From the NCBI RefSeq assembly GCF_056712565.1, contig NZ_CM160072.1: 64,000 nt of DNA, one strand, 5' to 3'. Below are positions 38,916 through 41,673 of the stretch, in pieces; positions within the stretch are counted from its first letter, which is position 1; each line of letters begins with the position of its first letter. The notes below the pieces were generated by a model. That model was given only the letters and a program-made list of their open reading frames with translations, ran no database searches and had not been told where the DNA came from. Position numbers and translations under genes: made by a program.

Positions 38916-39704
38916 TCATTTCAGCGTACAATCGCCACATTGCTGCACATCCGGTAAGCGATAACGCTGGCAGCAAGTGCGGCGCACCAGCAGGCCGTCG
39001 CGTAGCACCACGGTACGCCAGAGTGGATTATCTTCACCGGTAGTAAGCGTTTTCTCAAAAAAGAGGGCATAGCGCAGCGATTCAACCGTCGCCTCGCCGA
39101 GCAGCTGTTTCATCTCAGTCAGATACCAGTTGATCAAATAACCGGTATTGCTCCAGATAAGTTTGCCGTTAATCTCTCCCGTTGCTTCTAGTGCCTGCAG
39201 AACCGGAACCAGCGCCTGGCTGATTAACGTTTCCATTCGCTGCTGCGGCGAATGTAGTGTTGCGTTTTTATCTTCACACACATCGACCCAGAAACAGGCG
39301 GCGCGTCCGGTTTCGTGAAACTCAACGTGGACATGTTCCGGCGACACATCTAATGCTTTTTCCTGAGTCAGCAGCGCCAGCATTAATGGTGGTACCATCA
39401 GGCCGATATACCATTGCGCCCACAGTGAGATAAGCGGTTTGTTTTCGCGGATCATCAAAGGTTGGTTGCGGTAGATATGATCGGAATAGACCGCGAGTAG
39501 AGAACTTAGCGCATTCGGTGATGACCATTGCGCCAGCGTCATGGCGTTAAGTGGGGCGGGTTCATCCAGGCGGATAAACTCCAGCAAATGTTCACGATGT
39601 TCGGCGATCGTTGCCCGCACGGCTTGTGCAAGCCCAGCATCCTGCGGCTGGAGATGCGTTCGCCAGATAACATCTTCATAGAGCGGTGCGGAACGATAGG
39701 CCAT
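38916..39704 (-). CDS. fhuF: Ferric-siderophore reductase FhuF (2Fe-2S)
   Basis: 262-aa ORF with C-terminal C-C-x10-C-x2-C cluster motif (CCQRYRLPDVQQCGDC). Confidence 0.93.
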   Translation of the reverse strand: MAYRSAPLYEDVIWRTHLQPQDAGLAQAVRATIAEHREHLLEFIRLDEPAPLNAMTLAQWSSPNALSSLLAVYSDHIYRNQPLMIRENKPLISLWAQWYIGLMVPPLMLALLTQEKALDVSPEHVHVEFHETGRAACFWVDVCEDKNATLHSPQQRMETLISQALVPVLQALEATGEINGKLIWSNTGYLINWYLTEMKQLLGEATVESLRYALFFEKTLTTGEDNPLWRTVVLRDGLLVRRTCCQRYRLPDVQQCGDCTLK

Positions 39705-39844: not shown

Positions 39845-40081
39845 ATGTTGCAACGTACGCTGGGCAGTGGCTGGGGAGTGTTGCTGCCGGGATTGCTGAT
39901 TGCAGGGCTGATGTATGCGGATTTATCGCCGGATCAATGGCGGATTGTCATTCTGATGGGATTGGTATTGACGCCGGTGATGCTGTATCACAAACAGTTA
40001 CGGCATTACGTTTTGCTACCATCGTGCCTGGCGCTTATTGCTGGCATCATGCTGATGATAATGAATTTGAATCAGGGGTGA
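39845..40081 (+). CDS. yjjZ: DUF1435 small inner-membrane protein YjjZ
   Basis: ORF 39734..40081; start set at MLQRTLGSGWGVLLPG (78 aa); two predicted TM helices. Confidence 0.8.
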   Translation: MLQRTLGSGWGVLLPGLLIAGLMYADLSPDQWRIVILMGLVLTPVMLYHKQLRHYVLLPSCLALIAGIMLMIMNLNQG

Positions 40082-40119
40082 TAAAACAGTGACGAGACAA
40101 GAAAAGAAGTAAAGATAAT

Positions 40120-40206
40120 TGGTGCGAGGGGGGGGACTTGAACCCCCACGTCCGTAAGGACACTAACACCTGAAGCTAGCGCGTCTACCAATTCCGCCAC
40201 CTTCGC
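40120..40206 (-). tRNA. leuV: tRNA-Leu (CAG anticodon), 87 nt with encoded CCA
   Basis: Reverse complement reads GCGAAGGTGGCGGAATTGGTAGACGCGCTAGCTTCAGGTGTTAGTGTCCTTACGGACGTGGGGGTTCAAGTCCCCCCCCTCGCACCA; type II tRNA with long variable arm. Confidence 0.95.
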
Positions 40207-40240
40207 ACAGTCATCTTACTTTTTTTGATATCGCCTCGTT

Positions 40241-40327
40241 TGGTGCGAGGGGGGGGACTTGAACCCCCACGTCCGTAAGAACACTAACACCTGAAGCTAG
40301 CGCGTCTACCAATTCCGCCACCTTCGC
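40241..40327 (-). tRNA. leuP: tRNA-Leu (CAG), variant copy with one substitution in the variable arm
   Basis: Identical to the flanking copies except GTGTTCTTACGGAC instead of GTGTCCTTACGGAC (tRNA sense). Confidence 0.93.
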
Positions 40328-40355
40328 CCAGTGCGAGCAATATCAACGTGGTTTT

Positions 40356-40442
40356 TGGTGCGAGGGGGGGGACTTGAACCCCCACGTCCGTAAGGACACT
40401 AACACCTGAAGCTAGCGCGTCTACCAATTCCGCCACCTTCGC
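40356..40442 (-). tRNA. leuQ: tRNA-Leu (CAG)
   Basis: Third tandem copy, identical to the copy at 40120-40206. Confidence 0.95.
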
Positions 40443-40587
40443 ATACCATCAATTCTTAAAAAGAATTGCTACCACGGAGGCGCATTCTAGTGGTTTTCAG
40501 CTTTTCGTCAATAGTTAATTATCGACAGAGGTGTAATTGCTGGAAAAATATCCATCAGCGGATTGTGGATAATTCGTTTGTCGGTCA

Positions 40588-40630
40588 GATAAGGCGTGTA
40601 CGCCGCATCCGACACGGTATGCGGCGACAT
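40588..40630. repeat. REP-like palindrome downstream of rsmC
   Basis: GATAAGGCGTGTACGCCGCATCCGACACGGTATGCGGCG. Confidence 0.5.
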
Positions 40631-40641
40631 ATATCAGATAC

Positions 40642-41673
40642 TCAACCTTTCTTCGCCTGGCGGGTCATAATGGCGCGATACACCTTGAAGCGCCCGGTTT
40701 GCGCGATCACTTCATGGAAGCCAAATGTCTCATCCAGCACGTCCGGGTAAGGCAGGAAGGCGTTCGCTACAATTCGCAACTCGCCGCCGCTGTTCAGATG
40801 ACGCACCGCGCCGCGAATCAGCGTTTGCGCGGCATCCAGGCTGGTTTGCATCCCATCGTGGAACGGCGGGTTGGAGATTATCATATCAAAGCGACCTTTC
40901 ACCTCGGAAAAGACGTTGCTGGCAAAGACTTCACCTTCAACACCGTTGGTCGCAAGTGTTGCGCGGCTGGCTTCTACCGCTGGTGCAGAAACATCACACA
41001 GAGTGAGGCGGATCTTCGGTGAATGGCGCGCAAAAGCAACGGAAAGCACTCCCGCGCCGCAGCCGACATCCAGCACTTTACCTTTCGTGTGTGGAGTTAG
41101 CGTCGAGAGCAGCAACTGACTGCCGACATCCAGACCGTCGCGGCTAAACACGCCCGGCAGTGTTTTGACCGTCAAGCCATCGACGCTGTATTCGCCCCAG
41201 AATTTATTGGCATCAAATACCGGCTGCTTTTCCAGACGACCAAAATAGAGGCCGCAGCGACGGGCGCTGTCTACCTTATTCAACGGCGCATAATCGGCCA
41301 GCATCTGCTCGGCGATGCGCACGCCGCTGCGGTTCTCGCCAACGACAAAAATATCCGTGCCCACCGGAAGCAGAGAAAGTAAATTCATCAACTGGAACTG
41401 GGCTTCCGGTTTGTTCTTCGGCCAGTAGTAGATCAGCGTATCGCAATCTGCGACATCATTCGCCGTGGCGACCAGGCTAAAACGGGCGTTATCCCCCATC
41501 TGGCGGCTTAACACCTGCCAGTGGTGGAATTGCTGGGTATGAGCACGGCTGGCCGCGGTATCTAAACGCGCGGGCAGGTCATCCTGTAAGTCTCCGGCAA
41601 ACAGAATACGGCTTTGTTCGAAATCATCACTGTGACGCAGCAAGACTTCACTTGCCGGGGTAAATGCAGACAT
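40642..41673 (-). CDS. rsmC: 16S rRNA (guanine1207-N2)-methyltransferase
   Basis: 343-aa ORF with duplicated methyltransferase fold ([12 protein letters not shown] AdoMet motif, NPPFH). Confidence 0.93.

Follow-up and report, generated by a model that had tools for sequence, protein, structure and literature searches.

Three tandem tRNA-Leu(CAG) genes lie in the window, the whole 64-kb stretch of DNA analysed here, and the middle gene departs from its two neighbours at a single base in the long variable arm. The first-pass annotation, made from the sequence alone, left two options for this base: it might mark a genuine isodecoder, or it might have arisen in sequencing or assembly because the gene is repeated. 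The locus thus asks whether the base is real, how old and how widespread it is, and whether it matters to the tRNA. Taken as a whole, the evidence is best explained if this is the E. coli chromosomal leuQ-leuP-leuV operon, leuP is an old U-type isodecoder of probably near-neutral effect, and the tandem repeats recombine now and then within E. coli; this account is almost certainly right. The operon and the single-base difference of leuP are both already known from the reference genome and the literature.

Three genes and their single difference

Across the whole window ARAGORN calls tRNA-Leu(CAG) three times and no more, each time on the minus strand. The genes and the variant base are as follows.

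40356-40442, minus strand: leuQ, promoter-proximal and transcribed first; C-type, CCA encoded (ARAGORN, Rfam, identity to K-12 b4370)
40241-40327, minus strand: leuP, the middle gene; U-type isodecoder with T at tRNA position 48 (ARAGORN, Rfam, three-copy alignment; equal to K-12 b4369)
40120-40206, minus strand: leuV, promoter-distal and last; C-type, equal to leuQ (ARAGORN, Rfam, alignment, K-12 b4368)
40280, minus strand: the variant base, A on the plus strand and T/U in the tRNA sense; linear position 48, pairing with G55

Each gene scores 48.5 bits against the Rfam family RF00005, for which the gathering score is 29, and in all three the anticodon cag stands at linear position 35. When the three 87-nt genes are aligned, 86 columns are identical and one is different. 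The sole difference lies at linear position 48 in the tRNA sense, with C in leuQ and leuV and T in leuP; on the plus strand the equivalent sites read A at 40280 and G at 40159 and 40395. The first-pass annotation had set TAAGAACACT against TAAGGACACT for this contrast, which agrees with these bases. It had also placed three tRNA-Leu(CAG) genes where ARAGORN now calls them, and its coordinates, anticodon, count of one difference and variable-arm location all prove exact in the ARAGORN calls and the alignment. A row of three tRNA genes of 87 nt that are almost the same in sequence cannot have arisen by chance.

Locus identity and comparison with K-12

The neighbours of the array in the window are fhuF (38916-39704, minus strand) and yjjZ (plus strand) on one side, and rsmC (40642-41673, minus strand), holD and rimI on the other. 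According to the open reading frames of the window and the annotation of matching genomes, the array sits between rsmC and yjjZ/fhuF, on the same strand as rsmC. Gene names were taken from NC_000913.3, in which leuQ (b4370) adjoins rsmC, leuP is b4369, and leuV (b4368) adjoins yjjZ. Identity to K-12 and the flanking genes bear out the earlier naming of the array as the E. coli leuQPV tRNA-Leu(CAG) cluster. The K-12 tRNA-Leu1 operon, alias the 'leuV operon', was reportedly first sequenced by Duester, Campen and Holmes in 1981.

Over 5 kb around the genes, identity is 100% with B2/ST95-type strains such as IHE3034, APEC O18, PMV-1 and SF-468. Aligned with K-12 BW25113, the window shows no mismatch over the first 415 aligned columns, from the promoter through leuV and with the leuP T included; the span of 100% K-12 identity begins 78 nt upstream of leuQ and ends about 15 nt past leuV. 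The array of NC_000913.3 is also C-T-C, that is, C-type, U-type and C-type in the order of transcription. The K-12 operon thus shares with the window its gene order, the 87-nt sequences including T48, the spacers, the leader, the -35 and -10 elements and the flanking genes, and differs only in its surroundings, namely the sequence downstream of leuV and the copy number of a REP-like element.

Evidence that the variant base is real

The frequency of the variant was surveyed in 5429 complete E. coli records. Allele queries were kept below 100 nt and anchored in unique spacers, so that the identity band of at least 99% amounts to an exact match. A first population query of 149 nt was dropped, because a single mismatch still fell inside that band and the alleles could not be separated. 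The query for the T allele was a 94-mer made of the leuQ-leuP spacer and the part of leuP that carries the T; it is matched exactly in 4526 of the 5429 records. The spacer itself is present in 4976. The C version of the query has exact matches in 564 records. About 453 of these are without the spacer, and there the best match is a 66-nt perfect match to another C-type copy. The number of records with three C-type genes (CCC), about 111, is accordingly an estimate by subtraction, with at least 40 of them individually listed. About 339 spacer-bearing records carry some other difference and were left out of the C/T counts at position 48.

Two papers describe the same difference. In K-12, leuP is the one Leu(CAG) gene that differs, by one variable-arm base (PMC12472396), and K-12 sequence groups are given separately as '(leuP), (leuQ leuT leuV)' (bioRxiv 10.1101/2020.02.21.958157). 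Because of the K-12 identity, the 4526 records, the occurrence in other genera and these two papers, the T in the middle copy is judged to be a real, ancient and described isodecoder, not a sequencing error.

The reading in which the three genes are truly identical and the T is an error in a repeated gene draws some support from the public assemblies, where errors in these genes do exist: copies of 85, 86, 88 and 89 nt result from miscounted C8/G5 homopolymers (loci L005, L008, L087 and L106). One assembly labelled K-12 MG1655, CP025268.1 (L008), even reads CCC and has a leuV of 88 nt; its CCC state is unlike the reference, which suggests a polishing artefact or a conversion in the laboratory strain. 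The substitution in leuP, however, lies outside any homopolymer, unlike the type of error observed. The same base is found in the K-12 reference, in BW25113 and in records produced by many technologies, the same array position carries T in more than 10 other genera, and the difference has been described in print. The error option of the first-pass annotation is therefore very improbable, and its other option, a real isodecoder, is borne out by NC_000913.3 and BW25113, which have the same leuP T. The chance that the T is instead a recent mutation specific to this strain or to its B2/ST95-type lineage is smaller still and close to negligible. That the change is a single base is all that speaks for such an origin; against it, the same base occurs in K-12, which belongs to phylogroup A, in strains of all listed sources and in other genera.

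Other genomes with three identical copies had been named as evidence against a real difference. Such genomes are only a minority, the roughly 111 records that include ETEC H10407 and O55:H7; in the majority the T is kept. The CCC arrays of E. coli are best read as secondary homogenisation.

For practice, the base at 40280 should not be 'corrected' when assemblies are polished, and tRNA-seq and annotation pipelines should handle leuP as a separate isodecoder. The discovery value of the locus is little, since this is a textbook tRNA operon; its use is as a sanity check.

Array variation within E. coli

Besides the C-T-C arrangement of the window and K-12, E. coli carries four minority arrays, given here in transcription order.

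C-C-C: about 111 records; ETEC H10407 (L132), O55:H7, one MG1655 assembly
T-T-C: 61 records; FHI_NMBU_03 (L131), MRE162 (L004)
C-T-T: 62 records; Nissle 1917 (L130) / ATCC 25922 lineage
Single C-type gene: about 450 of 5429 records; O157:H7 PNUSAE146744 (L006), AVS0744 (L133)

The T-T-C and C-T-T arrangements were confirmed on loci L131 and L130, respectively. CCC, TTC and CTT each make up about 1-2% of E. coli, and C-T-T appears to be a mark of the Nissle 1917 / ATCC 25922 lineage. The single-gene arrays retain the leader of leuQ and the trailer of leuV, and strains with them are two Leu(CAG) genes short and lack the U-type isodecoder.

These minority arrays have the pattern expected if 87-nt tandem repeats undergo gene conversion and unequal crossing-over. 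Gene conversion would yield the CCC, TTC and CTT arrays, and unequal crossing-over between leuQ and leuV would collapse the cluster to one C-type gene. The variation of leuQPV in both copy number and allele is consistent with recombination between the repeats. With CTC, CCC, TTC, CTT and single-gene alleles in one species, the array illustrates the concerted evolution of clustered tandem tRNA genes in nature. A parallel in E. coli is valV-valW, likewise a set of tandem, near-identical genes with the same anticodon on one transcript that is processed by RNase P and terminated by Rho (PMC2190699); leuQPV differs from it in having three copies and a single stable difference in the middle one.

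Since leuT, the fourth gene for this tRNA, is C-type in E. coli, strains with CCC or single-gene arrays are left with C-type genes, and so roughly 10% of complete E. coli genomes, O157:H7, O55:H7 and ETEC H10407 among them, are without any U-type tRNA-Leu(CAG). This speaks for a dispensable U-type. That about one E. coli genome in ten does entirely without this tRNA is the small descriptive point that the population survey adds.

Distribution across genera and the fourth gene

To place the variant in other species, an exact-pattern scan for the T-type variable arm was run on one genome per species, which gave at least 120 T-bearing loci across Enterobacterales. Array contexts were established by tRNA calling and by tblastn with the RsmC, FhuF and HolD of the window. 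Because the scan pattern contained the T, the frequency of CCC in other species is not readable from its matches; the position of the T within the arrays is unbiased by the query.

Among the Enterobacterales loci listed, the array adjoining rsmC is a conserved locus. At least 31 of the rsmC-linked arrays among the matches listed are C-T-C in transcription order, in the following taxa.

C-T-C arrays: E. coli, E. albertii, Salmonella enterica arizonae, Citrobacter, Klebsiella, Raoultella, Kosakonia, Phytobacter, Pseudocitrobacter, Pseudenterobacter, Intestinirhabdus, Enterobacter spp.

The T occupies the middle gene in 37 of the 45 three-gene arrays listed, with the xTC, CTx and TTC types included, and is confined to the third gene in 7 of the 45. 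Two-gene arrays also occur among the matches listed: Xenorhabdus and Photorhabdus have T-C pairs, and Proteus and Morganella have mostly C-T pairs. The C-T-C order was in place before Escherichia, Salmonella, Citrobacter, Klebsiella and Kosakonia diverged.

The fourth tRNA-Leu(CAG) gene, leuT, encodes the same 87-nt tRNA within the argX-hisR-leuT-proM operon. It differs from leuQPV in belonging to a separate operon outside the window, and its processing reportedly depends on RNase E (PMC2190699). In K-12, leuT (L129) is identical to leuQ and leuV and hence C-type. A T-type leuT in the argX-hisR-leuT-proM context was found at no fewer than 39 of the loci listed (including L011, L021, L042, L046 and L075), and among the matches listed leuT is U-type in most other Enterobacterales, Escherichia whittamii included. 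E. coli, where just 4 of 5429 records have a T-type leuT, seems to have gone over to the C-type of this gene.

Variable arm structure and likely effect

The variable region comprises 15 nt (linear positions 45-59) and forms a 4-bp stem, 46-49 with 54-57, closed by a UUAC loop. The stem pairs are G46:C57, U47:A56, C48:G55 and C49:G54. In leuP the third pair from the stem base changes from C48:G55 to a U48•G55 wobble. Comparison of 20 distinct enterobacterial Leu(CAG) sequences shows the helix 100% paired: pair 48:55 is never open and reads CG in 13 sequences against UG in 7, pair 49:54 is CG in 16 and UG in 4, and at pair 47:56 there is one compensatory change from UA to CG.

In a nearest-neighbour model the energy of the isolated arm is -3.7 kcal/mol for the C-type and -0.8 kcal/mol for the U-type, which makes the latter about 2.9 kcal/mol weaker; evaluated in the same way, the whole cloverleaf has -30.0 (C-type) and -27.1 kcal/mol (U-type). 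The U-type hairpin is thus predicted to be preserved but weakened. Unconstrained minimum-free-energy folding of single tRNAs gave no cloverleaf and weak z-scores and was set aside as evidence. Such a failure is normal for tRNAs without their modifications and tertiary contacts, and for this reason the cloverleaf and the isolated arm were evaluated instead.

Leucine identity in E. coli rests on A73, A15-U48, G18G19 and the D/T-loop tertiary pairs; leucylation shows no correlation with how the long variable arm folds or what its sequence is, and armless variants stay active (PMC9976931). In Sprinzl terms, A73 corresponds to A84 before the CCA and U48 to U59, the last base of the variable region; A15, G18 and G19 are present, and the T-loop reads UUCAAGU. 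All of these elements are found unchanged in each of the three copies, and the variant base does not belong to them. Given these shared identity elements and the reported irrelevance of the variable arm (PMC9976931), the product of leuP would be charged and used like that of the other copies. The U-type variant of leuP is probably near-neutral, given that E. coli LeuRS reportedly ignores the variable arm.

All three genes also have an A5•C79 mismatch in the acceptor stem (Sprinzl A5:C68), located in leuQ at 40438 and 40364. The mismatch has been described as a unique feature of tRNA-Leu(CAG) (PMC4105747). Homologues from Morganellaceae have G•U in its place, and in some copies from Enterobacter, Lelliottia and related Enterobacteriaceae position 5 is a C, still unable to pair with C79.

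Neutral or selected

The U-type might also be more than an old neutral variant. In that case leuP would supply a functionally distinct isodecoder under selection, a second Leu(CAG) species with a weaker variable arm, and possible roles would include stability or turnover, modification, processing kinetics, output of tRNA fragments, sensitivity to a variable-arm-reading nuclease or phage factor, or evasion of such a nuclease. The idea gains from the arrangement next to rsmC, where C-T-C is common to Escherichia, Salmonella, Citrobacter, Klebsiella, Raoultella, Kosakonia, Phytobacter, Pseudocitrobacter and others and persists even though conversion to CCC, TTC and CTT occurs within E. coli; such persistence across genera could reflect some selection for the U-type. 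Most other genera among the loci listed have two U-type genes, leuP and leuT, and the prediction of a U-type arm weakened by about 2.9 kcal/mol points the same way. Several observations weigh against it. The roughly one-tenth of complete E. coli genomes that have no U-type gene includes successful lineages, O157:H7, O55:H7 and ETEC H10407 among them; the U•G change keeps the pairing; the arm is reportedly irrelevant to leucylation in E. coli (PMC9976931); and the cross-genus sample was chosen for presence of the T, so that conservation is overstated. On balance a selected function is unlikely, and the near-neutral isodecoder is preferred. The long retention of C-T-C more probably comes from slow homogenisation than from weak selection. 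If selection did act, lineages without the U-type, such as O157:H7, would carry a small cost or would have compensated for it.

Transcription and processing of the operon

The sequences that would govern expression of the array are listed below, all on the minus strand.

40512-40558, minus strand: conserved upstream region, in which the reported FIS activation site is expected
40484-40511, minus strand: predicted operon promoter, with -35 TTGACG (40511-40506), a 16-nt spacer and -10 TAGAAT (40489-40484); 10/12 in a consensus scan
40443-40475, minus strand: 5' leader of 33 nt, with +1 placed at about 40475 from the published leader length; taken off by RNase P according to K-12 work (PMC2190699)
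40328-40355, minus strand: leuQ-leuP spacer of 28 nt, the trailer beginning with AAAACC... after the CCA
40207-40240, minus strand: leuP-leuV spacer of 34 nt, the trailer beginning with AACGAG... after the CCA, with an A7/T7 run

The promoter sequence is 100% identical to that of K-12, and a G+C-rich discriminator, GCGCCTCC, follows the -10 element. Up to about 116 nt upstream of leuQ the upstream region equals K-12 bar one base, and beyond this point strains diverge. As a secondary source, PMC2965240 assigns to the region from -112 to +33 a stable-RNA -35 and -10, a FIS element upstream of these, and the 33-nt leader, in which the natural processing sequence lies. The leader of the window contains a perfect hairpin made of A and U only (AAUUCUU-UUU-AAGAAUU, 40451-40467, minus strand), just upstream of the RNase P site. 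It folds at -7.2 kcal/mol with z = -1.75, which is not compelling by energy alone, and is fully conserved in K-12 and Nissle 1917. The length of the A7/T7 run in the second spacer is strain-variable, with one-base variants in MRE162 (L004) and other strains.

In K-12, RNase P cuts the leuQ-leuP-leuV transcript apart with no need for RNase E; termination is Rho-dependent, and PNPase and RNase II trim the 3' tail (PMC2190699). A search for an intrinsic terminator downstream of leuV on the minus strand found none, which is consistent with the published Rho-dependent termination. The roles of the promoter, FIS, RNase P and Rho are carried over from the K-12 literature on the strength of 100% sequence identity, and they would combine as follows. 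One strong sigma-70 stable-RNA promoter would drive a tricistronic precursor with the 33-nt leader and the 28- and 34-nt spacers; RNase P would split it into pre-tRNAs, the transcript would end in a Rho-dependent manner, and exonucleases would trim the 3' ends. The products would be tRNA-Leu1(CAG), which reads CUG, the commonest codon of E. coli.

The trailers of the window, CCAAAAACC for leuQ, CCAAACGAG for leuP and CCAAUUAUC for leuV, agree with the text of PMC2190699. Table 1 of that paper swaps the leuQ and leuP trailers relative to its own text, and both the window and K-12 fit the text.

The surroundings vary at both ends of the operon. Downstream of leuV (40080-40105, minus strand) the match to K-12 drops off sharply some 15 nt beyond the CCA: 9 of the last 26 aligned columns differ, and this divergence falls where the Rho-dependent terminator is reported. 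On the other side, the interval 40559-40640, which separates the leuQ promoter from the 3' end of rsmC, holds a REP-like palindromic element, GTCGGTCAGATAAGGCGTGTACGCCGCATCCGACA. It is present once in the window, twice in K-12 and three times in Nissle 1917, and the intergenic length is strain-variable; the gap between leuQ and rsmC ranges from 189 to 308 nt among the loci fetched.
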